Shown: positions 4,907 through 57,576, counted from the first letter of the stretch. The stretch is DNA of 64,000 nt from Thermodesulfovibrionales bacterium (GCA_035622735.1 DASPUT010000077.1:2645-66644); one strand, 5' to 3'. Program-made: numbers and translations. The notes: generated from the sequence alone by a model not told the origin.

Positions 4907-5098
4907 TATGCATTAAAGGGGGTAATCCGAAGCCCCGGAGGACTTTTGAGGGTCACTTTAACAAAGTAGAGCAAGTCGTCGCACAAGAAACTGGTCTAGG
5001 CCGGACAGAGGACATCATAAGCGGCGATTTCACTGGCAATGACGGGAGGGGCGAATAATTTCATTCATGATTGAACAGTCCTTAAAAGGAGGAGAGGT

Positions 5099-5884
5099 AT
5101 GAAAAAAATATCGGTAGTGATGATGGCAGTGATGGCTATTTCAGTTTTGCTGGCGGTTCCGGCGTTCAGCGCGCCAAAGCTTATTGTGAAGGCCGCGAAC
5201 GGGACTGATGATGTTTTCCACGTGGAGGATACGGGGAATGTCGGAATCTTCTCTGGAATTACAAACCCGGCTGCGCCGACAGCACCGTTGAACATCGTCT
5301 CGGCAGGTTCGGGAAATCTCTTCACGATAACAACCACATCCCCGGCAGGAGGTGCAGGGTTTGAATTTAAAGTGCCGGGCGGCGGTGATTGGCTCTTCAG
5401 GGCAACTCAGGATAATGGGTTCAAGATAAGGGATGGGGCAAATGCGAAGGATGCGGTCTACGTTCAATTTAATACCGGCCATGTCGGGATCGGCACACTT
5501 ACTCCGGCCCATCCTCTCGTAATTTGTGCATTTCCGGGCTCGGCGACGTGCGTTTCTAATGACGGTACCACAACATGGACAGCTTCGAGCCGTGAATACA
5601 AGGAGAATATTCAGTCTTTACCCGCTGACAAGGCGATTGACGCCCTGAAGGACCTCAATCCTGTTACCTTCAGATATAGAGACATCCCCGACCAGCCGCA
5701 CGTCGGATTTATCGCAGAGGATGTTCCTGATTTGGTTGCGTCGAAAGACAGAAAGGCACTGAGTCCGATGGACATCGTGGCTGTCCTGACGCGAGTGGTT
5801 CAGGAGCAGAACAAGACTATCGAGGCGCTCTCGGCGAAGATCGACAGGCTCGAGAAAGCTTCAATGGACGGAAGAAAGTTTTAA
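5099..5884 (+). CDS. secreted protein with C-terminal peptidase S74 (tail-fibre/endosialidase intramolecular chaperone) domain
   Basis: AAGGAGGAGAGG lies before the ATG. Signal peptide MKKISVVMMAVMAISVLLAVPAFSA. C-terminal block SSREYKENIQSL...LNPVTFRYRD...HVGFIAEDVPDLV...MDIVAVLTRVVQEQNKTIEALSAKIDRLE matches the self-cleaving Ser-Lys chaperone domain. Confidence 0.7.
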   Translation: MKKISVVMMAVMAISVLLAVPAFSAPKLIVKAANGTDDVFHVEDTGNVGIFSGITNPAAPTAPLNIVSAGSGNLFTITTTSPAGGAGFEFKVPGGGDWLFRATQDNGFKIRDGANAKDAVYVQFNTGHVGIGTLTPAHPLVICAFPGSATCVSNDGTTTWTASSREYKENIQSLPADKAIDALKDLNPVTFRYRDIPDQPHVGFIAEDVPDLVASKDRKALSPMDIVAVLTRVVQEQNKTIEALSAKIDRLEKASMDGRKF

Positions 5885-38403: not shown

Positions 38404-38531
38404 TCCCTATTTCCTTCACTCTTTCCTCAGCCTTTCCGGCAAAGCACAAAAAAAGAAGCACATTTCCCAAACGATGTGTCTTTCAGCGCTGATTCATTCC
38501 GTGGCTGCTTTGTACTGGATACATCAGATGA

Positions 38532-38822
38532 CTATTCGCTGAGATGCTTATTGACTAATTTGGTCATCTCGAACATTGAGACCTGGTTCTTCCCGTCGAA
38601 TACCGCCAAGAGATTCTCATCTGCATTGATATTTCTCTTATTCTTTGCGTCCTGGAGATTATGTTGCTTTATATACTCCCATAGCTTCTTGGTTATCTCT
38701 GTCCTTGGAAGCGGTTCATTCCCCACTATCTTAGCCAGCGCCTCGCTGGGTTTCATGGCCTTCATAAATGCCGGATTAGAGGGTCTCTTCTTTGCACCTT
38801 TCTTCTCAGTCTCTGACATCAT
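38532..38822 (-). CDS. SWIB/MDM2 domain protein
   Basis: KPSEALAKIVGNEPLPRTEITKKLWEYIKQHNLQD...NINADENLLAVFDGKNQVSMFEMTKLVNKHL is the canonical SWIB pattern. Confidence 0.8.
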   Translation of the reverse strand: MMSETEKKGAKKRPSNPAFMKAMKPSEALAKIVGNEPLPRTEITKKLWEYIKQHNLQDAKNKRNINADENLLAVFDGKNQVSMFEMTKLVNKHLSE

Positions 38823-39018
38823 TCTTCTCCTTATGGTTGCGGTTTTAGAGTCTCAGTTCCTCTTTTTCAGAACTCAGGCATCTAAAAGTATACACTAATC
38901 GCACAATTCGGCTCTTATCCAACGCTATTGATAGTTCTGCAGATTTCCGGTTGAACTATAAACAACCAGACTCGAGACGAAAGGCATTGAGTTCAGGAAG
39001 GAGCACAAATATGGCTTC

Positions 39019-39300
39019 TTATTTCGCCGCGCCGTGCAATTCCTCTTCAACCCTTTCAGACAGGAATATCTTTAAGAGCGATTGATAAGGAACATCCCGT
39101 TTATTAGCAAGTACCTTAAGATGCTCAATGAGCGATTCGGGCAGACGAATCGAGATCGTTTTGGTTGATGGTTTTAAGTGTGGAAATACTACTCGTTTTG
39201 CGGTCGAGTAGTCGACGTACTCCGTGGAATCGTGAGTAGCCCAAAACTCGGCTTCTTCTGCTTCACTCTTAAATTTGGGTATCTTCTTGAGTCTGTTCAT
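39019..39300 (-). CDS. brnA: BrnA-family antitoxin (RHH/CopG-like)
   Basis: KFKSEAEEAEFWATHDSTEYVDYS...ISIRLPESLIEHLKVLANKRDVPYQSLLKIFL. It overlaps the upstream BrnT gene by 32 nt. Confidence 0.8.
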   Translation of the reverse strand: MNRLKKIPKFKSEAEEAEFWATHDSTEYVDYSTAKRVVFPHLKPSTKTISIRLPESLIEHLKVLANKRDVPYQSLLKIFLSERVEEELHGAAK

Positions 39301-39592
39301 ATACTCTTCTCTCCTTCCGATTCATGTCACGTGCCGAAATTATCCTTATCCTGGCACGCCTCAAAGCGAAAACGACAAAAAGCAATCTCTCCGTGTCTGT
39401 CTTCCCCAGCGCGAAGCATCGATCCTCAGTTGTTGAGTGCGGCATATCTTTTCTAACAATTATCGGATCGTTAAAGAATATCTCTTCGCATTCGATATGG
39501 GAGACTCTATGTCTCTCCCAATTCTTCTTTATATTTCCCTCGTCCCATTCGAAACCTTCAACCGAAGCCCAAATGTCAGTCCAATCTTTCAT
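39269..39592 (-). CDS. brnT: BrnT-family toxin (DUF497 ribonuclease toxin)
   Basis: FEWDEGNIKKNWERHRVSHIECEEIFFNDP...RLLFVVFALRRARIRIISARDMNRKERRVYE. Confidence 0.85.
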   Translation of the reverse strand: MKDWTDIWASVEGFEWDEGNIKKNWERHRVSHIECEEIFFNDPIIVRKDMPHSTTEDRCFALGKTDTERLLFVVFALRRARIRIISARDMNRKERRVYEQTQEDTQI

Positions 39593-39809
39593 ATGCGTAT
39601 ATTACCAATATATACAAAAGAATGTATCCTGTCAATTCTTGGTGACCAATTTGCGTCCATTTACGAGCGTAACCCGCACCAGCTACCAAAGTTTAGATAT
39701 CAGGACTACAGGACTTTTTCCTCTGGATTTTACGGACTGAACCAGATGCGGTGTAGATTCTTTGTTGGAGACAAGGTTACTGCAGAGCCCAACAGGCGAC
39801 ACTCATATT

Positions 39810-40021
39810 TCACAGGCTCTCGTCATAATGGACACTGGAACCGCCGGATAACGAAACCGAATTTCCGACCACAGATCCATAGAGGCTGCTCCCTCCTGAC
39901 AAAGAAATACTGGCCCTTGGGGCAGAAATCGCACCATAGAGGGCACTGCTCCCTGAATAATTTGCCGAGGTGCAGAATTCGGGGCGTAAACGAGATTGAC
40001 CCACGCGTAAGCGCCTGCCAA
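39810..40021 (-). pseudogene. decayed 3' fragment of a gene encoding a repetitive 'LSGGSS-LYG' C-terminus
   Basis: Two frames share the signal: ...AWVNLVYAPNSA in one and YSGSSALYGAISAPRASISLSGGSSLYGSVVGNSVSLSGGSSVHYDESL-stop in the other. There is an upstream in-frame stop at 40047-40049 and no N-terminal part. Confidence 0.3.
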
Positions 40022-40121
40022 GTATCTCCCTTACAAGGCCTACCCCTCACGCGGGGAAGAAGAATTTCCAAATGTTCTAGTGTCCGCTCCTCACGCACCG
40101 AAAGTAGTACTGATTTGTCTT

Positions 40122-40673
40122 TTAGATGGTGACCACGCCATAGCCTCCACTGAAGTATGCAAGCCACGCGCGAGTTGAATCACTGGTGCTAGTTGTAGAT
40201 GACCAGTAGATACCGCCTAAAACAGCAGAATCATCGGTAAAAAGATGCCCCGCAGGAAGGTAAGGCGCACTCCCGGCATTTGGATCTATAAGCGTAGCAA
40301 GTTCCTCTATTGACGGGAGCCGCCATCCAAAACGCCCTCCCACTGATAGTATTGTGCACGATGCGATGGCATCGTCTTCCACTTTGGTTATGCCACTTGT
40401 CTGCCGTTGCCAGACCAAGCCTGTTTCTCTGTCAAGCACTGCTGCGTCGTCGAGGACCGTCAGCCATCGAGCAGCACCAAGAATCTTCTGGCTCCAAGTC
40501 GGCATTGATGCTGCAGTTTGAATTGTACCATCCGAAAAAGCGACACCACCGTTCTGCAGTAACAAGTCGCCGCCGACTTCGACCCCAGATGAAGCGTAGA
40601 CCACAGCGCCATAACTCACCAATGCAATCATAAATATAACTGCATTGCAAAATACAATATTTTTTAGGATCAT
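40122..40673 (-). CDS. DUF1566 (Lcl C-terminal domain) family secreted protein
   Basis: GGGGGGA lies before ATG 40673. N-terminal helix MILKNIVFCNAVIFMIALVSYGAVVYA. The blocks DRETGLVWQR..., GWRLPSIEELATL and YWSSTT...AWLAYFSGG are typical of DUF1566. Confidence 0.75.
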   Translation of the reverse strand: MILKNIVFCNAVIFMIALVSYGAVVYASSGVEVGGDLLLQNGGVAFSDGTIQTAASMPTWSQKILGAARWLTVLDDAAVLDRETGLVWQRQTSGITKVEDDAIASCTILSVGGRFGWRLPSIEELATLIDPNAGSAPYLPAGHLFTDDSAVLGGIYWSSTTSTSDSTRAWLAYFSGGYGVVTI

Positions 40674-41877: not shown

Positions 41878-42282
41878 TTACGATCCCATTTCGTCAAGGT
41901 GTTTACAGAACTTCAGGTAGGCGGAATCCTTTGCTGCTATCTTTACACCTATTAGACCATTCTTAATAGTCCTAATGACTTTCCCTTTCAGGTTTGATGT
42001 CTGCTTACCAGCTAGTTCGATATTAATGTCGAGTATTGTGTCAGGGTCAAATTGATGTTCTGTTTTTATGGACAAGCCGTTCATCGAAATATCTTGGCTT
42101 ATACCCTCATACGTTATGCCGTTTGCCGTGAACCGTATACCACAACTCACCTCATACCTTCTATAAAGTCTGTCGTCCTTTCTTCTCTCTGCCGAGCGAA
42201 GCAGGAAAAGTACAACGCTTGCACAAATTAAGGCGGTTGCCACACCTAAAGAAATCAGACTTGTCAGTGTTGCTTTAAACAT
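41878..42282 (-). CDS. membrane-anchored PilZ domain protein
   Basis: N-terminal helix LISLGVATALICASVVLFLL. PilZ motifs RLYRR (RxxxR) and DISMNG (DxSxxG). Confidence 0.8.
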   Translation of the reverse strand: MFKATLTSLISLGVATALICASVVLFLLRSAERRKDDRLYRRYEVSCGIRFTANGITYEGISQDISMNGLSIKTEHQFDPDTILDINIELAGKQTSNLKGKVIRTIKNGLIGVKIAAKDSAYLKFCKHLDEMGS

Positions 42283-42364
42283 ATTCCTTCCTTGGTCGCT
42301 TGTATTTTATTGTCATATTCTATGAAACAGTTTCTCGTTCACATTTTTAGAAACGCAAATCAAT

Positions 42365-42703
42365 TTAAGCGCCCATTTGTTTTTCGTATGATTTTGCGAT
42401 GCTCTCAATGAATCCCCTGATTCTTGCCCTCTGATCGTTATGCAGGTCAATAAACACAAGGCCTGCGCCAATGCCAGGCTGACAATTCTTTACCTGCCCT
42501 TTGACTGTTATCTTCTCTTCTCCTATCGGAAGGGTAATCTCGACAACGTCATCCTCGTCAAAATAGCGCGCCCCCGAAACATAAATACCGGCTTCACTTA
42601 TATCATAACTTGTACAGCAATGTATGCCGTCTAGCAAAATTTCCTCTCGAAAAGGAAATCTCCGGCAGTTTCTGCGTTCTGTTTTTTCTTCGTCGTCCTT
42701 CAT
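42365..42703 (-). CDS. PilZ domain protein
   Basis: RRNCRR (RxxxR) and DISEAG (DxSxxG). 112 aa, single domain. Confidence 0.8.
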   Translation of the reverse strand: MKDDEEKTERRNCRRFPFREEILLDGIHCCTSYDISEAGIYVSGARYFDEDDVVEITLPIGEEKITVKGQVKNCQPGIGAGLVFIDLHNDQRARIRGFIESIAKSYEKQMGA

Positions 42704-42710
42704 AAATTTC

Positions 42711-43094
42711 TCACTGATTATGAAAATGTCTGAGAGAAGAGGTTAACTGCTCATAGAGCAACGGTTGTTTCGTTGAATCTATTTCCTCCTTGAATTGAAT
42801 CCCCACATAATAAATATCCCTAATCTTTCTGCTATATGTGCTGATGCCGTCCACAGAAGCACTCTTCATCGATCCGTCGACCGCTATGAAATAAACATCG
42901 ATTGATAGATCTTTGCCCTCCCTCAGTGGCTGGTCAGAATAAACACCGATTCCCGCCAAAGACATGTCGGCAACCATTGCCTGAATTGAATAGGCGTCGC
43001 GCCCGCCAGCAATATTGAGTGTCGCGGTTGCCGGCAATGCAATTCTTTTATGACTGCGTATCCTATACATATGATGATTGCCGTTTATTCTCAA
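42711..43094 (-). CDS. PilZ domain protein
   Basis: RSHKR (RxxxR) and DMSLAG (DxSxxG). There is a 7-nt gap to the downstream PilZ gene. Confidence 0.75.
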   Translation of the reverse strand: MRINGNHHMYRIRSHKRIALPATATLNIAGGRDAYSIQAMVADMSLAGIGVYSDQPLREGKDLSIDVYFIAVDGSMKSASVDGISTYSRKIRDIYYVGIQFKEEIDSTKQPLLYEQLTSSLRHFHNQ

Positions 43095-43124
43095 TATGCT
43101 TTCCGGAACGCATGTTCGACAATT

Positions 43125-43553
43125 CTATCCCGTCCTCTTACTCATGTCCTTCACCTCGACTGGAGTGAAATCATCATTCATGCCTATTGAAGACGACAAA
43201 CTCTGCTCAAGTGAAGCGCGGTTAAGCAGATACCTGATAAAATGAACATAATTAGAATCCCTCTCAATGAGCTCGACTCCCATCCCAATTTTTTCTTTCT
43301 TCCCTGTCCTAAGCGCGGTCCCGGCGGGGCTTGCACAGGCTCTTTTGACCTTAACGCTAACCTTTGAAATCGCGCCATACGGTAGATAAAGTGCCATGTC
43401 GAGAATAGTATCCGGCGCCTGCGGATGGTCAGTTCTGATGAACATTCCGTGTAGCGAAAAATTGCTCGAAGTCCCAGTATAAATCATCCCGTTTGACACG
43501 AACTCAGTGTCACAGTACTTAATAAAGCGCTTATGCCTTCTTCTGTTAACCAC
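43125..43553 (-). CDS. PilZ domain protein (possibly the 3' part of an amber-interrupted gene)
   Basis: RRRHKR and NFSLHG motifs. The only available start is a GTG at 43553 with no Shine-Dalgarno sequence. The same frame continues upstream through one TAG (43569-43571) into a 54-codon ORF. Confidence 0.7.
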   Translation of the reverse strand: MVNRRRHKRFIKYCDTEFVSNGMIYTGTSSNFSLHGMFIRTDHPQAPDTILDMALYLPYGAISKVSVKVKRACASPAGTALRTGKKEKIGMGVELIERDSNYVHFIRYLLNRASLEQSLSSSIGMNDDFTPVEVKDMSKRTG

Positions 43554-44311: not shown

Positions 44312-44392
44312 CCCGATAAAGCTAAACCCTCCGTGAGAAGGGGACGGAAAGCGTGCGGGTCTTAGAGAAGATGGCCGAGCTGCCGAAGGATT
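44312..44392 (+). promoter_or_regulatory. candidate c-di-GMP-I (GEMM-I class) riboswitch aptamer
   Basis: By-eye alignment to the Vc2/RF01051 core. Elements found: AAAGCUAAACC (44318-44328); a hairpin capped by the GNRA loop GUGA (44329-44340); GGGACGGAAAGCG (44341-44353, compare GGGACGCAAAGCC); a second helix CGG-GUCUU/AGAG/AAGAU-GG-CCG (44356-44377); and 3' AGCUGCCGAAGG (44378-44389). Confidence 0.6.
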
Positions 44393-44474: not shown

Positions 44475-46784
44475 ATGCGATATGTTTGCGGACTCCCGGT
44501 TATTGTTATATTCGGTTTTTTATTAGTTCTCCCTTTTCCCCAAAATGCTCAAGCCTCGCTCCAAAACGGTGTTCCTTTCGATACATATCTGGATTCAATG
44601 ACTTATGCCAACATCGACATCTACGTACCTGCAGGTGCCACAAAACTCACTGTCACTATCAGTAATGGAAGCGGCAATCTGGATCTCTATTTGAAATACG
44701 GCAGTCCCGCTCAAGGCAACACTGTGGGGCAATTGAATGCTAACGCCGATGTCGTGTCGGCAGGTCCGACAGCGGATGAAACGATTGTGCTGACGCCTGA
44801 GACCACCCCTCCGCTGCACGAGGGGGTATGGTATGTTGCGACCTTGAACCTTAACAACACGAGAACTTATTTTGCATTAACCGCCACTGTGGAAGTTCCG
44901 ATGGGCCAAGCGATTCCAATTCCAACAGAACAGGAAATGTGGGGTTACTCGCCTGTCGAAAAATGCATCGCAAATTATGATGCTGCAAGTTCCAAGCCGA
45001 TATGCATTCAAACCTCCGTCCCGGGTGGTAAGACAATTACGGTCAAAGTTGAGGCCCAGCGATTTGCGGCACCGGTTGATATTTACTTCGGAATCTGTGC
45101 CAATCCGATCGACTCACGAAATATCTACCTCCTGTCATCAGATAACCATCTGCGACCGCTTGCCGAGGGTTATGTCCCTTGGCGCACAAACGTGGCGGGG
45201 CCTTTGAATGAAAATGTTTTGGGGGACATTCCCCTTTCGAGCCTTCCGCCAGGGAGGTATGACCTATATCTGGGGATAGCACTTTTGGGTCGAACAGACG
45301 TTTATTATATCTGGGCCACTTCTTATGTTATAAAGCCCGGGCCTGAGTATGTTGCAGATGGTGATGCCGCTTTTTTCGACGGCACGGTAGTCGTCCCAAA
45401 ATCGAAAATTCAATTTCAGGGTCAGCTTTACGATGAAACGGCTGAAGTACCCGCTAATACTTTAGTTGGTGTCATCAAGTCGGACAAGATCTACCTTTAT
45501 CATACGGCACTTGGTACCGTCACTCTTTCCGATGAGACGACGCGTAAGGCCATCGGACAATTTGTGATGGATTACTTTGAGAACACCTCATCGACAGCCA
45601 CTGCGGGACTCAACACCATTGCGAGTGGCGACCAACTCCTGACCTACGCAAATCCCGCGGATCTCAAGACCGGCGTCAAACTCACGCGACTCGCCGAAAA
45701 AGAGGTTGAAGTTTTGAACGAGTTCCACAGGTGGGCTGCGATAGAGGGGACAGAGGGGAGCGGACCATATTTCCTACCGCCACCGGCTCGTTATCTCGAT
45801 AACAACCTAATTCGTCTCTTTGGCAATTATCTGAAGTTATCGGAGTCCTGGTTCAATGCGAGCAACGAAAACAAGGAAACCGTGTATTTCACTTCAGATT
45901 CTCTGACGATTGAGACGTTCGGGGCAACATGGAGACCACTGCCCTATTTCCTTGCGGGTGCTACCGACATTGCCAATATGGTTGTTTCGTTGCTCTCTGG
46001 GCGATCGAATCCCGTAACGAACATCCCCATTGATGGCGAGGCCATGGCTATCCAGAAAGACCAAAAGCTTGTCGAAGCCCTTTGGAATATTGATCTTGCC
46101 GCCATGCTGTTCGAAGGGATAAAACTCTTCGCCGCCACATTCGATGTGAGCGAGACGCTTGAACCTGTAGTGAATCTGTGTTGCAACACGGCTATGGCGA
46201 TTACTCATGCCTGGATCAATGGTCAGGCGGGAACGCCGCAAGCCAAAGCCAGCGTTAAGAAGGCCATTGAAGATCTGGCCAACGACATTCCGACGGCATT
46301 GATTAATGTTGGTACCGCGGGAGGAGGCACGCCCTTCTTTACCTTGGTAGACGGCATTGCAACCCTGGATTACATGGTTGAGGATGTTGTTATCCACGAC
46401 CTTGAGGTTACTGGGGGGTCAGCCTACGATGAGGTCTCTATGAAACCGGAAACTTCAAACAACGTTGACCTATTCTCTTTCCCTTGGAGGGTATTTTGGG
46501 GCTGTGACGAGACATCCACCTCGTGCGATCCCGTGCCGAATTATCTCAAGTTTTATACAAATTATGTGTATGATCTCTTTGCCTCTCCCGATATGGCAAA
46601 GCCGGACTGGCACGGCAGTTGGTCTCGGGCTGGCTCAACCCTTACGCTCACGCCAACAGACGGCAAAGATTGCGTTTCATCCTATGTCGGAACACTGATA
46701 TATCCCCATACAATCAAGGGATACTACACCCTCGGACCGAAATGCGCAAACCCGGGAGAGAAACATTACTGGATGGCACAGTAA
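44475..46784 (+). CDS. secreted 769-aa protein with N-terminal PPC (pre-peptidase C-terminal type) domain; remainder unknown
   Basis: AGAGGAGGG lies before the ATG. Signal peptide ...LVLPFPQNAQA. PPC-like block YANIDIYVPAGATKLTVTISNGSGNLDLYLKYGSPA...WYVATLN. No family was recognised for the following ~620 aa. Confidence 0.8.
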   Translation: MRYVCGLPVIVIFGFLLVLPFPQNAQASLQNGVPFDTYLDSMTYANIDIYVPAGATKLTVTISNGSGNLDLYLKYGSPAQGNTVGQLNANADVVSAGPTADETIVLTPETTPPLHEGVWYVATLNLNNTRTYFALTATVEVPMGQAIPIPTEQEMWGYSPVEKCIANYDAASSKPICIQTSVPGGKTITVKVEAQRFAAPVDIYFGICANPIDSRNIYLLSSDNHLRPLAEGYVPWRTNVAGPLNENVLGDIPLSSLPPGRYDLYLGIALLGRTDVYYIWATSYVIKPGPEYVADGDAAFFDGTVVVPKSKIQFQGQLYDETAEVPANTLVGVIKSDKIYLYHTALGTVTLSDETTRKAIGQFVMDYFENTSSTATAGLNTIASGDQLLTYANPADLKTGVKLTRLAEKEVEVLNEFHRWAAIEGTEGSGPYFLPPPARYLDNNLIRLFGNYLKLSESWFNASNENKETVYFTSDSLTIETFGATWRPLPYFLAGATDIANMVVSLLSGRSNPVTNIPIDGEAMAIQKDQKLVEALWNIDLAAMLFEGIKLFAATFDVSETLEPVVNLCCNTAMAITHAWINGQAGTPQAKASVKKAIEDLANDIPTALINVGTAGGGTPFFTLVDGIATLDYMVEDVVIHDLEVTGGSAYDEVSMKPETSNNVDLFSFPWRVFWGCDETSTSCDPVPNYLKFYTNYVYDLFASPDMAKPDWHGSWSRAGSTLTLTPTDGKDCVSSYVGTLIYPHTIKGYYTLGPKCANPGEKHYWMAQ

Positions 46785-50866: not shown

Positions 50867-51724
50867 TCATTTAAAGGCAAAGTTAAATGACTGATCCACT
50901 CCGCCTTTTTTCAATATTTCAAAAGTGTCCTTGAAATCACCAGTCGTTGTTTTAATATAGCCCTGAATGTCCATTTGATCTCGGACCGACTGGGTCTGCG
51001 GAGAATTATCATCCTTTAAGGTGAGCAGAGCGCGAGCGAGCTTCGCAATTGTCTCTTTGTTCGTCTTCGAGGACACAATCAAAGTATTATCTGGATATTC
51101 TCCTTTGCCTTCGCCGACCGCTTCGAGGTGTGGATACTTATCTTTCATTTTGTCCCAGACACGGTTCTTCACGATCGCTATCTGGCCGCCACCATGTGCG
51201 AGTGCCTCGATGCCATATCCATGTGATGGAACTGGCAGTTTGATTGCATTAACAGATGCGATATTAGGAATGGAATAAAAGTAAAACTCCCCCGCAGAGG
51301 CCAAGGAAGTAAAGATGACATTCTTGCCTGTGAAGTAGTCGGCTGAACCGGTAAATTTGGGCGAACCTTTAGGAGCGAGTATAATAGCAGAATAAGTACT
51401 AATACCCTCCTTACTCAGGGGCCGGACCAATGGATTGGCTACTCCCTTGATCATCATTGTGCCCGCAATCCCGGAACCGCTGAACATGGCATCAATTTTC
51501 CCCGATGCAAATGTCTTTGCCGCGATAGGATAAGTTGGAACCTCAATGAGGCTAACTTGGATCCCTTTATTATTTAAGTATTCTATGAGCGGCGCATATT
51601 TCTTAACGGCACCGCGCATGTCCTCCATGATGGCGAGATTTAGCTGATCTGCTTGTGCAATGCGACCGTTAATGCCTAACAGCAGGAACGTGACGATAAC
51701 ACATACGATTCTTGATAACTTCAT
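50867..51724 (-). CDS. PhnD-like type 2 periplasmic substrate-binding protein (no cognate transporter genes nearby)
   Basis: GAGGAGGAG lies before the ATG. Signal peptide ...LLGINGRIAQA. LNLAIMEDMRGAVKKYAPLIEYLNNKGIQVSLIEVPTYPIAAKTFASGKIDAMF follows the phosphonate/phosphite-binding-protein pattern. Confidence 0.7.
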   Translation of the reverse strand: MKLSRIVCVIVTFLLLGINGRIAQADQLNLAIMEDMRGAVKKYAPLIEYLNNKGIQVSLIEVPTYPIAAKTFASGKIDAMFSGSGIAGTMMIKGVANPLVRPLSKEGISTYSAIILAPKGSPKFTGSADYFTGKNVIFTSLASAGEFYFYSIPNIASVNAIKLPVPSHGYGIEALAHGGGQIAIVKNRVWDKMKDKYPHLEAVGEGKGEYPDNTLIVSSKTNKETIAKLARALLTLKDDNSPQTQSVRDQMDIQGYIKTTTGDFKDTFEILKKGGVDQSFNFAFK

Positions 51725-52550: not shown

Positions 52551-53792
52551 ATGAACGGGGGCAAAATAAAGAGTTTTCTGGCGACACTCCTGGCAGCTCT
52601 TTCTCTATCAATTGTTATAGGCACGGCGAGGGATTTGTCAGCGGCATATGTATTAACAGACCAGGAGCTTGATGACCTCCTCGCTCCTATCGCTCTCTAC
52701 CCGGACCCGTTGCTAGCCCAGATGTTGCCAGCCTCGACATACCCGTCGGACGTTGTTGATGCGGCAGGTTGGCTGAGAAGCGGTGGCGACCCATCATTTG
52801 TTGATGAGCAAAATTGGGATGAGAACGTCGGGGCCATTGCCCACTACCCACAGGTTCTCTATATGATGGCTGATAATATCGATTGGACTGCTAGCGTTGG
52901 TGATGCTTTTCTGAACCAGCCGGAAGATGTGACCAATTCGATTCAGCGTCTGAGGTGGCAAGCGCAGACCCTCGGGAATCTTGTGAGTAACGATCAACAG
53001 GCTGTTACTACGGAGGGAGGCGATATTCAGATCATTCCAGCCCAACCTCAATATATTTATGTGCCTCAGTATGATCCATCAATCGTGTACGTTCAAGCAC
53101 GGATCCCCGTCCTGCCTCCTTACGTTACATTTCCCCTGGTGTTTACGATCGGAAGCTGGCTGGACCTTGACTTTGACTGGGGTCACCACCACGTCTTCTA
53201 CCATGGGTGGAATCGCCCTGGGTGGGTCAATCATGCAAGGCCCTATGTGCACATAACGAATGTTTACGTTCAAAGGAGCAGACCTTACATCAATCAGACA
53301 TGGAGGCACAATCCATCGCACGGCGATCCAGACAGGTATTGGACGTCGAGACCGGGTGGAGCTCCAAGCGGCAGCTATCCGCACGGCTCTGAAGTCAGGG
53401 GAAGGAGTTCGACACCCACGGGACCTGCGGCTGGCCCGTTCGTCCCCAACGCCAATACCAGGCAATTTAGCGATAGGGGAAAAGAAAGCCTCGGCACTGC
53501 CGTTCCACGTCCGACACCTCAAGCTCCTGCTGCCGTTCCACGTCCAGCACCTCAAGCTCCTGCTGCCGTTCCACGTCCGGCGCCGCAAGCTCCCGCTGCC
53601 GTACCACATCCGGCGCCGCAAGCTCCTGCTGTCTTCGGAGGCTACAGGGGACTCAATGAAGTCAAAACGCAGAGTATGCGTGGCCAAGCGAGCCGCCAGA
53701 GCAATGTGGGAGGATCCACCGCGCCAGCTTCGGTGAACAAGGTCGGCGCTCCTTCGAGCCGCGGCGAACCCGGTAGCGGCGGACACCGGTAA
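52551..53792 (+). CDS. DUF3300 family secreted protein with proline-rich repeat tail
   Basis: GAAGGAG lies before the ATG, followed by a signal peptide. LTDQELDDLLAPIALYPDPLLAQMLPASTYPSDVVDAAGWL is the DUF3300 hallmark. Confidence 0.8.
   Translation: MNGGKIKSFLATLLAALSLSIVIGTARDLSAAYVLTDQELDDLLAPIALYPDPLLAQMLPASTYPSDVVDAAGWLRSGGDPSFVDEQNWDENVGAIAHYPQVLYMMADNIDWTASVGDAFLNQPEDVTNSIQRLRWQAQTLGNLVSNDQQAVTTEGGDIQIIPAQPQYIYVPQYDPSIVYVQARIPVLPPYVTFPLVFTIGSWLDLDFDWGHHHVFYHGWNRPGWVNHARPYVHITNVYVQRSRPYINQTWRHNPSHGDPDRYWTSRPGGAPSGSYPHGSEVRGRSSTPTGPAAGPFVPNANTRQFSDRGKESLGTAVPRPTPQAPAAVPRPAPQAPAAVPRPAPQAPAAVPHPAPQAPAVFGGYRGLNEVKTQSMRGQASRQSNVGGSTAPASVNKVGAPSSRGEPGSGGHR
53499..53630. repeat. four tandem 33-bp coding repeats (AVPRPAPQAPA units)
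   Basis: GCCGTTCCACGTCC(G/A)(A/G)C(A/G)CC(T/G)CAAGCTCC(T/C)GCT repeats head-to-tail at 53499, 53532, 53565 and 53598. Confidence 0.85.
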
Positions 53793-53862: not shown

Positions 53863-54831
53863 ATGAAGACAGTTTCAGCAGACTCCACATCTCATTCATC
53901 GCAGAAGATTGCTTTAGTAACATCCATTTTGGCTTTAGCGATGGCGGTCTTATGGAATGTGACGGGGACCGGTGCAGCGTCCCAACGATATTTTGCCACA
54001 CCAGAAGACGCTGTCAAAGCACTCGCAGAGGCCGTGAAGTCAAACGACACGGCCGCGCTGGATCAGATTTTCGGGCCTGCCAGAAAAGAGGTTCTCTCTA
54101 ATGACGAGGTGCAGCACGCTGCTGCCCTTGAGGCATTTACGAAACACCTGCAAGAAAAAACTAATCTTGTGAAAGAGAATGATTCGACGGTGATGCTTCA
54201 CGTCGGTAATGAAGACTGGCCCTTTCCCATTCCGATTGTGAAAAGGGATAACCAGTGGTTCTTTGATACTGAGGCAGGCAAGGAAGAGATCCTAAACCGT
54301 CGTATCGGAGAAAACGAACTTACCGCCATGCTCGTTTGTCGCACGTACGTGAAGGCTCAGCGAGAGTATGCCCTGAAGGATTGGGAGGGCACCGGTGTAC
54401 TGGCATATGCACAGAAGCTGCGAAGTGACCCTGGTAGGAAGAACGGTCTTTTTTGGAGAACGAAGGAGGGAGAAGAGGTGAGTCCCTTCGGGGAACTCGT
54501 CGCTCAGGCGTGGAAGGAAGGATATAAGAAGAAAAAGGCCGCTTTCAGGGAAGAGGCAACACCATTTCACGGATATTATTTTAGAATCTTGACTGAACAA
54601 GGTAAAAATGCCCCGGGGGGAAAATACAATTACGTTATCAATGGCAACATGGTTGCAGGTTTTGCCCTGATCGCATTTCCCTCGGACTGGAAGAAATCGG
54701 GTGTTATGACATTCGTTGTCAATCAGCAAGGGAAAGTCTATCAGAAGAACCTTGGACCAGAGACCACCAAGATTGCTCAACAGATGAAATCATATAATCC
54801 TGATGGAAACTGGACCCTTGTTAAGGAATAA
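53863..54831 (+). CDS. DUF2950 family secreted protein
   Basis: GAAAGGAAGGA lies before the ATG. WPFPIPIVKRDNQWFFDTEAGKEEILNRRIGENEL...GYYFRILTEQGKNAPGG...GFALIAFPSDWKKSGVMTFVVNQQGKVYQKNLG matches the DUF2950 pattern. This family is the usual partner of DUF3300. Confidence 0.8.
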   Translation: MKTVSADSTSHSSQKIALVTSILALAMAVLWNVTGTGAASQRYFATPEDAVKALAEAVKSNDTAALDQIFGPARKEVLSNDEVQHAAALEAFTKHLQEKTNLVKENDSTVMLHVGNEDWPFPIPIVKRDNQWFFDTEAGKEEILNRRIGENELTAMLVCRTYVKAQREYALKDWEGTGVLAYAQKLRSDPGRKNGLFWRTKEGEEVSPFGELVAQAWKEGYKKKKAAFREEATPFHGYYFRILTEQGKNAPGGKYNYVINGNMVAGFALIAFPSDWKKSGVMTFVVNQQGKVYQKNLGPETTKIAQQMKSYNPDGNWTLVKE

Positions 54832-55234
54832 TAGCCTTGTACTAACGGTATTCTTCATCGCCGTTCATTTGACACATGAAAAAAGTTACTTCCGAATAAT
54901 CACACATTTGTTTCTACGGCTTGGTGTCTGATAGGATGGGCAGTCAGCAGTTATAACGAGTTGCAACGCGCGTTGCTTACAGGAAGAAGGTCCGGTAGTA
55001 CATCTGCTGCCCTCAACAGAAAATATAATTATGAGGTCCTGCCATAATTGAAAGTTGACGTTGACACGCCCCTCAGGGCTATCAATAATACGAATCAATT
55101 AACTGTAAAGCTTGAATGTCGGAGAAAAAGCGGGAAGAGGCCGGAATGTTTGCTTTGAGAAAGAAGCCTTATACCACGAGACAAGGTGCTTAACGCACCC
55201 TGTCCTATCTCGGAACTCAGAGGGAGGTGCCCTG

Positions 55235-55544
55235 ATGGAAAGAAAATCGAAACTGAATTGTTGGGAATTCAAAAAGGTGCGGGAGACAATTAGGAGGGCT
55301 CCATATACAGGATCTGGGCAGATGTCCCGCGACTTTGGAAGAGAGACTGGATGGAGTGCACGATGGTGTAGATGCCGGCAGGGCATGCTGGGTCGTGGCT
55401 GGAACCTTATGCAGGGATGAGGTGCAGGGCACATTTGCCCAGAAATTTTCTAACTGTAAGACATGCGACTTCTATGAGAAAGTGCGCGAAGAAGAATACC
55501 CGAATTTTGAACTTTCTGCAATGCTCCTCATGAGACTGAAATAA
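55235..55544 (+). pseudogene. two-CW-domain small protein gene interrupted by a 1-nt frame shift (or assembly error)
   Basis: AGGGAGG at 55221-55227 lies before ATG 55235, giving MERKSKLNCWEFKK. After the A5GG run (55271-55277) the family-like sequence continues in the next frame: CGRQLGG...CPATLEERLDGVHDGVDAGRACWVVAGTLCRDEVQGTFAQKFSNCKTCDFYEKV, with the stop at 55542-55544. The span of 310 nt is 103 codons plus 1 nt. Confidence 0.55.
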
Positions 55545-55575
55545 TGCGAGGGCAAAACTATGACCGGGGTCGGCC

Positions 55576-56529
55576 ATGAGTAAGGTGGCTCTGGTTCTGA
55601 GCGGCGGGGGTGCGAAAGGAGCCTTCCAATTCGGCGCCATAAAATACATCGAAGAGGAAATAAAGAAGAGGTATCCTGACTTCCGGTATAAGATCATCGC
55701 CGGCGTATCCGTGGGCGCTCTCAATGCCGTCATGCTGGCGATGGATAAATTCGCCGACCTCGAGGAGCTTTGGAACACGGTCAGCGCAGATCAAGTTTAT
55801 GAGGGCAGCCTCAACTGGACAGCGGCGATAAAAATCGTCTTCGGGGCCAAATCTATCATGAGCAATAAACCCCTGTCGGACAGACTGAGCAAGATAATCA
55901 GCCTGAAGGACATGAAGACTGATAAATATGATTTACGAATAGGCGCGGTGTCTCTCGTGAGCGGCGAGTATAGGGCTTTCCGCCCTTCTGACTTCGACGA
56001 TGACGAGGATTTTCGAAGCGCGATACTCGCCACAACAGCGATACCCGTGATATGGGAGCCGATAGAGAAGATCCGGTTGAGAAATGCCCTCTACTTTGAG
56101 GAGGCCGTCGACGGAGGCATCCGGAATGTGAGTCCTCTCGGAGACGTATTGGATGAAGATCCTACCGATGTCATCATGATTAATTGTAATCCTGAAAAAT
56201 TGTCGTCTGATGCTGACTCGGCGAAAGATATCCTATCTATCGCAAAGAGGTCACTGACGGACATTACGATTAATGAAATATTCAGATCGGATGTGAGGTT
56301 CTTTCTCACGATAAATAATCTTGTCGAACAAGCCCGAAAGCACGGCATCGACCTTTATAAGGACGAAGGCCAAACCGATGTCTACAAGGCCTTCAAGTCG
56401 GTATTGATCGAACCGCCCGATGATTTGGGCGACACTCTCGATTTCTCCCAAGACGTTCTTAGGGAGAGGATGCGCGTGGGATATGAAACAGCAGGAGAAG
56501 CCTTCAAGGATTACCAGTTCACAAGCTGA
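55576..56529 (+). CDS. patatin-like phospholipase
   Basis: Oxyanion loop LSGGGAKGAFQFG, nucleophile elbow AGVSVGA (GxSxG) and catalytic Asp motif VDGGIRNVSP. Confidence 0.88.
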   Translation: MSKVALVLSGGGAKGAFQFGAIKYIEEEIKKRYPDFRYKIIAGVSVGALNAVMLAMDKFADLEELWNTVSADQVYEGSLNWTAAIKIVFGAKSIMSNKPLSDRLSKIISLKDMKTDKYDLRIGAVSLVSGEYRAFRPSDFDDDEDFRSAILATTAIPVIWEPIEKIRLRNALYFEEAVDGGIRNVSPLGDVLDEDPTDVIMINCNPEKLSSDADSAKDILSIAKRSLTDITINEIFRSDVRFFLTINNLVEQARKHGIDLYKDEGQTDVYKAFKSVLIEPPDDLGDTLDFSQDVLRERMRVGYETAGEAFKDYQFTS

Positions 56530-56577: not shown

Positions 56578-57576
56578 TTACGCTTTATGTTTTATCCTTT
56601 TATGTTCGTGCATCATCTCATCCGCGTGCGAAATCAATTCGTCAACGGAACACGGCTTTTCCGGGTTGTAAAGAGATACGCCGAGACTCAATGACAGGTT
56701 GTAGTTCTTATTTCTCGAAGCATTCTGATTTTTCATGTTCTTCTCCAGGCGGGCGATAATCTTCTCTATGTTATCTCCGGTAATTCCTACCGGAATTACG
56801 ACAAACTCATCACCACCTATCCGGGCAACGATGTCTGACTCCCGATAGGTTGTTTTGAGGACCTTAGCGGTCTCGACTAGTGCCTCATCGCCCTCGTGAT
56901 GGCCTGACCTATCATTAATCGATTTCAGATGATCCAAATCGGCATAGAGCATGTATATCCCTTTCTTTTGCCGTTTGGCGAGCTTGAGAAACTCCTCGGC
57001 GAGCGTGAAGAACCCCCGCCGGTTGTACAGGCCGGTGAGTTCATCAGTGATTGTCAGGAGACGGAGTCTCTCTTGTAATTTGACGTGGTTCACCCTATGC
57101 AGTATTTCCTTCATGGTAAAGGGCTTCTTTATGAAGTCCGATGCCCCGGCATCTATGGCTCTGTCGTACGAGAAATCGTCAATGAAACCTGTCATGATAA
57201 TGGTCGCCATGTCGGGTCTGAACTTTCTCGCTTTTTCCGTGAGTTCAAAACCATTCATGCCGGGCATTGCGACGTCTGCCAGCATAATGTGGAAATGGCC
57301 TTTCGTTAAACATTCAATGGCGGCCTCGGAACTCGTGCACGTTTCGCATCGGTAACCATGAGATTCGAACATCTCTCGGAGTATCGGCAACATTGCTTCA
57401 TCGTTATCAACAATGATTATTGCGGTTCTCTCGTCCAACTTACCCTCCGTCTTCGGGTTCATCATCCGGGTCCGGGAGGCATGCGCCAAAGCTGCTTTTC
57501 GCGACAATGCATCCGCAAATAGGATAATACTACTCTCGATTAAAATCAAGAACGAAATTGGGTTCGAACATTTCAA
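56578..57576 (-). CDS. response regulator-diguanylate cyclase (REC-GGDEF)
   Basis: REC domain: IIIVDNDEAMLPILREMF...MLADVAMPGMNGFEL. GGDEF domain: DELTGLYNRRGF...RIGGDEFVVI, with an RESD I-site five residues upstream. The true start may be the internal MMNPK (about 57465). Confidence 0.88.
   Translation of the reverse strand: MKCSNPISFLILIESSIILFADALSRKAALAHASRTRMMNPKTEGKLDERTAIIIVDNDEAMLPILREMFESHGYRCETCTSSEAAIECLTKGHFHIMLADVAMPGMNGFELTEKARKFRPDMATIIMTGFIDDFSYDRAIDAGASDFIKKPFTMKEILHRVNHVKLQERLRLLTITDELTGLYNRRGFFTLAEEFLKLAKRQKKGIYMLYADLDHLKSINDRSGHHEGDEALVETAKVLKTTYRESDIVARIGGDEFVVIPVGITGDNIEKIIARLEKNMKNQNASRNKNYNLSLSLGVSLYNPEKPCSVDELISHADEMMHEHKRIKHKA

Follow-up and report, generated by a model that had tools for sequence, protein, structure and literature searches.

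A one-base insertion in a two-CW domain gene upstream of a patatin-like phospholipase gene in a Thermodesulfovibrionales bacterium: probably a young pseudogene

In a contig of an uncultured Thermodesulfovibrionales bacterium (GCA_035622735.1, DASPUT010000077.1:2645-66644; these 64,000 nucleotides are the window referred to throughout), a gene for a small cysteine-rich protein of the two-CW domain family is broken by a frameshift, and an intact patatin-like phospholipase gene follows directly downstream. The locus raises the question of whether this break is an error in the data, a device which regulates the two-CW protein, part of a sensor/effector module formed with the phospholipase, or the trace of an inactivated gene. 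A preliminary description, made from the sequence alone, had offered sequencing error, phase-variable slippage and programmed frameshifting as explanations and had considered a sensor/effector pairing conceivable. We consider it probable that the locus carries a stand-alone two-CW gene which was recently inactivated and belongs to a known but functionally uncharacterised family, and that the lesion is a genuine, recent one-base insertion which is fixed in the sampled population.

The interrupted two-CW gene

The ribosome-binding site, the start codon and the loss of the frame after AAAAAGG were found where the preliminary description had placed them (Table 1). In the zero frame, MERKSKLNCWEFKK is followed by unrelated sequence as far as the TGA at 55418-55420, while the +1 frame reads CGRQLGG...SAMLLMRLK from 55278 onwards and ends with the TAA at 55542-55544. 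When the two parts are joined, a protein of 102 residues results which matches the NCBIfam model NF045718 (two_CW_domain) over its complete length (model 1-80/80) with 113.3 bits and E = 4.9e-33. As the curated cut-off of this model is 35 bits, the match is far beyond chance, and the family assignment is thus confirmed. The C-terminal open reading frame (ORF) in the +1 frame reaches 69.8 bits by itself, while the zero-frame ORF had no family match in the profile scan; Pfam holds no model for the two-CW domain.

The repaired protein keeps seven cysteines and one histidine, and the positions C9, W10, C15, C30, H42, C51, W52, C59, C74 and C77 are all invariant in an alignment of 35 family members. 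Among 98 more diverse two-CW sequences most of these positions are invariant and the others nearly so, with the exception of H42. Stand-alone members of NF045718 (about 100 aa, from Nitrospirota / Thermodesulfovibrionales) resemble the repaired gene in matching the model over its full length and in having both CW motifs, seven cysteines and one histidine. The 91% identical orthologue (P0001) also agrees in size, ribosome-binding site and start context, and a DNA alignment shows AAGGGAGG at the Shine-Dalgarno position of the orthologous locus L009. What the gene in the window lacks is an uninterrupted reading frame: these members are intact, whereas it has one additional base after codon 13/14. 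A second difference is that none of the members examined has a patatin gene downstream.

Table 1 Features of the two-CW/patatin locus. Positions are counted from the first nucleotide of the window.
Feature	Position	Strand	Remarks
Sigma-70-like promoter candidate TTGACA-17-AATAAT	55061..55089	+	11/12 match; 145 nt upstream of the two-CW start codon
Shine-Dalgarno sequence AGGGAGG	55221..55227	+	7 nt before ATG 55235; read directly
Two-CW domain gene, frameshifted (probable pseudogene)	55235..55544	+	codons 1-13 or 1-14 in the zero frame, remainder in the +1 frame
ORF translated from the native start	55235..55420	+	61 aa; two-CW sequence in residues 1-14 only, then 47 unrelated codons
Lesion site AAAAAGG	55271..55277	+	one extra base; A5 here, A4 followed by GG in L006
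Patatin-like phospholipase gene, intact	55576..56529	+	317 aa; PF01734 with 100.5 bits; GGGAKG, GVSVG and DGG in the translation
Response-regulator/GGDEF (diguanylate cyclase-type) gene	56578..57462	-	Pfam Response_reg and GGDEF; convergent with the patatin gene

The upstream element TTGACA-17-AATAAT is present as described, but its function as a promoter remains that of a candidate. Two sites with an 11/12 match occur on the two strands of the window, compared with 0.5 +/- 0.6 in random sequences of matched composition. The other one (TTGACA-17-TATATT at 39635, minus strand) lies in a region where ORFs on the plus strand (38476-40132) overlap in different frames and have no Pfam matches.

A DNA alignment with the intact genes of L009, L001 and L006 places a single extra base inside AAAAAGG. 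The window reads TTCAAAAAGGTGC where L006 has TTC-AAAAGGTGC, and the three intact relatives have AAGAGG, AAAAGA or AAAAGG at this site. The extra nucleotide is indeed the sole lesion, but the repair to F-K-K-C-G that had been proposed is replaced by another one. Judged from the nearest relatives, the most parsimonious repair appears to be the deletion of one A, which gives F-K-R-C-G as is found there; both lysine and arginine are found in the family at this FK(K/R)CG position.

Four other contigs encode an identical patatin protein; three of them span the shift site, and all three have the same A5 run. These are L010 (ENA ERZ27251271, 86.5 kb), L011 (Logan assembly of SRR7004340) and L012 (ENA ERZ27251257), which come from two assemblers (MEGAHIT-type k141 contigs and Logan). 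L010 and L011 agree with the window at every position, while L012 shows 3 SNPs (single-nucleotide polymorphisms) against it in 3.4 kb (at 54929, 56340 and 56610) and represents a second haplotype; two of these three SNPs also occur in the JGI (Joint Genome Institute) contig L013.

The repaired protein has 512 homologues, and the 120 that were listed all have a length of about 100-148 aa. All 12 homologues which were inspected are intact and align over the full length, the best one being 91% identical. The pattern of the shifted allele, TGYTGGGARTTYAAAAAGGTGYGG, had no match in 241 million metagenome records, and neither allele of the exact gene (A4 or A5) was matched in a scan of JGI metagenomes. 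At this Lys-Lys/Arg position intact relatives often have several A in a row, as many as 6, and their frame is kept. From these alignments, the shift site would simply be a short, mutation-prone homopolymer which is imposed by the conserved residues.

The ratio of nonsynonymous to synonymous substitution rates (dN/dS) of the two-CW gene against the 91% orthologue in L009 is 0.05 at a dS of about 1.0; the segments on either side of the shift give the same ratio. Comparisons between intact two-CW genes gave values of 0.02-0.09. As the ratio resembles that of intact pairs and every invariant column is kept, the break should be recent when set against the time since these lineages diverged.

Neighbours and fusion partners

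The patatin gene was found to be intact, with its three motifs, and to start 31 nt after the two-CW stop codon, as had been described. Its Pfam score is far beyond the gathering threshold of 27.7 bits, and dN/dS against its orthologues is 0.06-0.07. The gene is intact and independent, and purifying selection acts on it. The stretch between it and the two-CW gene showed no intrinsic terminator. With patatin-like phospholipases of the RssA / 'NTE family' type (PF01734; stand-alone, about 315 aa) it shares the full domain, the GGGxKG oxyanion motif, the GxSxG serine and the DGG aspartate, and it has many homologues of about 315 aa across phyla. It also has the patatin catalytic domain in common with CapV, the cyclic GMP-AMP (cGAMP)-activated phospholipase of CBASS (cyclic-oligonucleotide-based antiphage signalling systems). 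However, its score against the CBASS lipase model NF041079 is only 54.7 bits where the cut-off is 200 bits, and the match covers residues 6-187, that is, the N-terminal half. PADLOC gave 58 bits to a CBASS lipase, which reflects the generic patatin domain, and had no system-specific match for this gene. Neither a CD-NTase (cGAS/DncV-like nucleotidyltransferase) nor any other CBASS or defence gene was found nearby, the neighbours being DUF3300, DUF2950, the response-regulator/GGDEF (RR-GGDEF) gene, GNAT, FtsZ and FtsA.

A scan with one genome per species gave at least 568 two-CW loci, and neighbourhoods were taken from the best 80, nearly all of which are from Nitrospirota or Thermodesulfovibrionales. 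A patatin gene within ±5 kb of the two-CW gene was found in none of these 80 loci, either by tblastn or with a hidden Markov model built from 120 patatin homologues. In a Pfam scan of the immediate neighbours, SelA (20 of 78) and SelB (19 of 75) were found together with a few receiver or PAS proteins; Patatin was absent among the 25 commonest Pfam families listed for each side. The three patatin orthologues (L014, 84%; L015, 83%; L016, 59%) are likewise without a two-CW gene or a remnant of one, and their neighbourhoods are different in every case. L014 and L015 are homologous to the window only within 55566-56527, so that the shared sequence does not extend past the patatin ORF. A search around the patatin gene for direct or inverted repeats, as expected of a mobile cassette, found none. 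The adjacency of the two genes is a lineage-specific juxtaposition and not a conserved pair or system; recurrent linkage did not materialise in the 80 loci, and in the orthologous loci examined the two genes are unlinked, both of which the preliminary description had named as outcomes that would refute the pairing.

In L014 (338-954, minus strand) the closest patatin orthologue (84%) adjoins a PIN/RHH toxin-antitoxin pair, and in L001 and L006 transposase genes lie beside the two-CW genes. The neighbourhoods of these three loci look prone to rearrangement.

A different neighbour is retained. In L009, an orthologue of the RR-GGDEF gene (encoded at 6-674; 75% aa identity to the product of 56578-57462) ends 54 nt upstream of the intact two-CW gene and is co-directional with it, and the homology between L009 and the window ends exactly at the borders of the two-CW gene (55216-55543). 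The same orthologue (61%) lies 2 kb upstream of the two-CW gene in L071. From the context in L009 and L071 it follows that the two-CW and RR-GGDEF genes of the window are still neighbours, rearranged and with the patatin gene between them. In this lineage the nearest conserved neighbour of the two-CW gene is the RR-GGDEF gene, not the patatin gene. A general enrichment of receiver-domain neighbours is not claimed, as 8 of 80 loci are too few without a baseline.

Partners of the two-CW domain are also seen in fusions. A profile search of 1.8 billion representatives returned 1796 two-CW clusters (at 50% identity), and 42 multi-domain two-CW proteins were analysed. These are fusions to HATPase_c (11), Response_reg (9), PAS (8), HisKA (6) and cNMP-binding domains (3), to Pkinase, GAF, GGDEF and PilZ (2 each), and to MCPsignal, Hpt, PP2C and nucleotide cyclase (1 each); a patatin domain occurs in none of the 42. 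Given the seven invariant cysteines and one histidine, and the fusions to kinase, receiver, PAS and GGDEF modules, the intact two-CW family most likely serves signal transduction as an input module which senses metals or redox state. The part of the proposed pairing in which the two-CW protein acts as a sensor is thus upheld by the fusions, while the patatin partner is not.

Explanations for the frameshift

Inactivation could have proceeded as follows. One base was inserted in the short A/G run which encodes the conserved Phe-Lys-Lys/Arg-Cys, probably by replication slippage from A4 to A5. Ribosomes which start at ATG 55235 would then make a product of 61 residues with only 14 native ones, and translation would stop at 55420, so that its distance from the patatin start would grow from 31 to 155 nt. 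Upstream of 55335 the +1 frame offers no start codon from which the N-terminal cysteines could be rescued. As no alternative start would restore the first three metal-ligand cysteines, a functional two-CW protein should no longer be made. The mutation would be young, the remainder of the gene being without decay. The patatin gene would have come between the two-CW and RR-GGDEF genes by a lineage-specific rearrangement, and from the positions of the stop codons, a polar effect of the earlier translation stop would be the only plausible consequence for it. A C-terminal ORF of 69 or 62 aa was considered as a functional short form and rejected, as it is without C9, C15 and C30 and has no convincing ribosome-binding site.

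An extra base introduced by sequencing or assembly, with the gene intact in the organism, would fit a lesion that is a single base in a homopolymer of an otherwise undecayed gene. However, the run is only 5 nt long, no intact allele closer than 91% was seen among the homologues found, and elsewhere in the window there are long unbroken ORFs of up to 1393 aa. As two haplotypes from different pipelines share the frameshift and the long ORFs are unbroken, such an error is very unlikely. A programmed +1 ribosomal frameshift or a transcriptional slip, by which a regulated full-length two-CW protein would be made, has a slight chance of being the explanation. In its favour, tRNA-Lys could re-pair in the +1 frame on AAA-A, purifying selection is strong on both sides of the shift, and the ribosome-binding site and start codon are retained. 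A +1 shift is also what is needed at prfB-type sites, where, as with the P-site AAA here, re-pairing is the principle; in contrast to such sites, the zero frame has neither a stop nor a hungry codon at the shift, a clear Shine-Dalgarno-like stimulator is absent, and relatives do not share the shift. The slip codon is followed by an ordinary AAG, neither stop nor rare, and a zero-frame stop comes only after 47 more codons. Inspection of the upstream sequence gave no convincing Shine-Dalgarno-like stimulator, Rfam had no match across 54780-55620 (the 400-nt upstream region and the shift site), and a −1 slip would meet UAG. A run of five A is too short for efficient slippage of RNA polymerase. 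The shift is absent from all homologues inspected, including the 91% orthologue, and from the metagenome records, so that a frameshift of the same type is not seen elsewhere. A homopolymer which acts as a phase-variable switch for the two-CW gene and, by polarity, for the patatin gene is extremely unlikely. The homopolymer with the indel does lie at the gene's 5' end, and the patatin gene follows at a short distance without a terminator, but the tract has 5 A where such tracts usually have 7 or more. Only the OFF length is found in the three assemblies and two haplotypes, relatives with A6 at the site are all in frame, and the scan of JGI metagenomes for either allele found nothing further.

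We also give little credence to the view that the two-CW and patatin genes form a sensor/effector module for conflict or defence which is disabled or restrained by the frameshift. Such a module is suggested by the distance of 31 nt on the same strand, the strong promoter-like site upstream of the pair, the generic patatin domain shared with CBASS lipases and the role of the two-CW domain as a sensor in fusions. It is opposed by the complete absence of the pairing from the two-CW loci, the patatin orthologues and the fusions, by the low and partial CBASS lipase score, and by the lack of a cyclase or other defence gene nearby. It is hardly probable, finally, that the shift is a functional recoding or slippage switch, in which a low-level +1 correction on AAA-AAG-G sets the dose of a two-CW metal or redox sensor. 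If this were true, the stop position (155 versus 31 nt) would also set patatin expression, and the locus would be a lineage-specific, sensor-gated membrane-lipid effector. The undecayed state of the two-CW gene keeps such a switch compatible with the data; positive support for it was not obtained.

Several points weigh against our preferred reading, the recent inactivation of a two-CW copy in a family of signalling input modules. The independence of the three assemblies is established in part, and the identical contigs L010 and L011 may share reads with the window. The evidence consists of assemblies, and a minority intact allele may exist in the population. Zero secondary decay is also expected if recoding keeps the gene expressed, which we judge unlikely; since tRNA-Lys slips on A-runs, spontaneous +1 correction may occur at a low level. 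The sensing function was derived solely from fusions and conserved Cys/His residues and should be read as a prediction, and the adjacency to signalling genes is modest, with a receiver-domain ORF within 400 bp in 8 of 80 two-CW loci.

The two-CW family and its wider context

A conserved operon partner of stand-alone two-CW genes was looked for and was not found; their contexts vary and include DsrC, cytochromes, AdoHcyase, TPR proteins and transposases. Tandem two-CW genes (2-3, side by side or within 2 kb) occur in L061 (4585-5588), L095 (4620-5303), L022 (5001-6741) and L017 (2812-5306), and at least 14 genomes contribute two or more of the best 80 loci. As two-CW genes are often present in multiple copies per genome, the loss of one copy is unsurprising. 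An intact two-CW homologue (P0005, 80% identical, 113 aa) is encoded in L097 and L098 (334-675 in both), with a DsrC gene 59 nt after it, and was found in the same samples as the frameshifted haplotype (ERZ27251257, JGI 3300017974). It and the frameshifted gene may thus be paralogues within one organism.

In 19-20 of the best 80 loci the two-CW gene lies between selB and selA on the opposite strand, head-to-head with selB (92-298 bp) and, in most cases, tail-to-tail with selA (13-60 bp). These loci include L024, L026, L028, L032, L035-L037, L039, L040, L042, L046, L047, L054, L055, L082, L086, L087, L092, L093 and others, and in most of them the two-CW gene is at about 5001-5300. This order may have been inherited within a single Nitrospirota clade, or the gene may be connected with selenium or selenoprotein biology. 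In a metagenome-assembled genome of Rokubacteria (L048, 4059-5309, plus strand), a PhnD-like (phosphonate-binding-type) domain and, downstream of it, a two-CW domain are found in one continuous ORF of 416 aa. It has an internal methionine just before the two-CW domain and is thus either a fusion or two genes which share a frame. A Phosphonate-bd gene is also present in the window (50867-51724, minus strand).

The window is rich in parts of cyclic di-GMP (c-di-GMP) signalling, with PilZ genes and a riboswitch in addition to the RR-GGDEF gene. Four small PilZ-domain genes (133, 111, 126 and 141 aa) lie in a row at 41878-43553 (minus strand). A c-di-GMP-I-GGC riboswitch (RF03167) at 44312-44388 (plus strand; 62.2 bits, gathering score 59) is located just upstream of an ORF of 769 aa (44475-46784, plus strand) with a PPC (pre-peptidase C-terminal) domain. 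The DUF3300 gene (52551-53792) contains a tandem repeat of 33 bp in 4.1 copies with 91% matches (53497-53631, plus strand), which encodes the Pro/Ala-rich unit AVPRPAPQAPA.

An AlphaFold model of the two-CW domain, computed with the 98 diverse sequences, has a pLDDT (predicted local distance difference test score) of 87.9 and no structural neighbour in PDB; an earlier model from 35 close sequences reached only 58 and was not used. The preliminary description had called the function of the family undescribed, and a literature search by family name or accession found no relevant paper.

In summary, there is little at stake in the lesion as such, which is probably that of a young pseudogene from a multi-copy family, with a link to patatin that does not recur. 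The two-CW family itself has become approachable, as it is large and has a Cys7His ligand set, a confident predicted model and fusions in which it appears as an input domain. We consider it a reasonable target for study, through its intact members.
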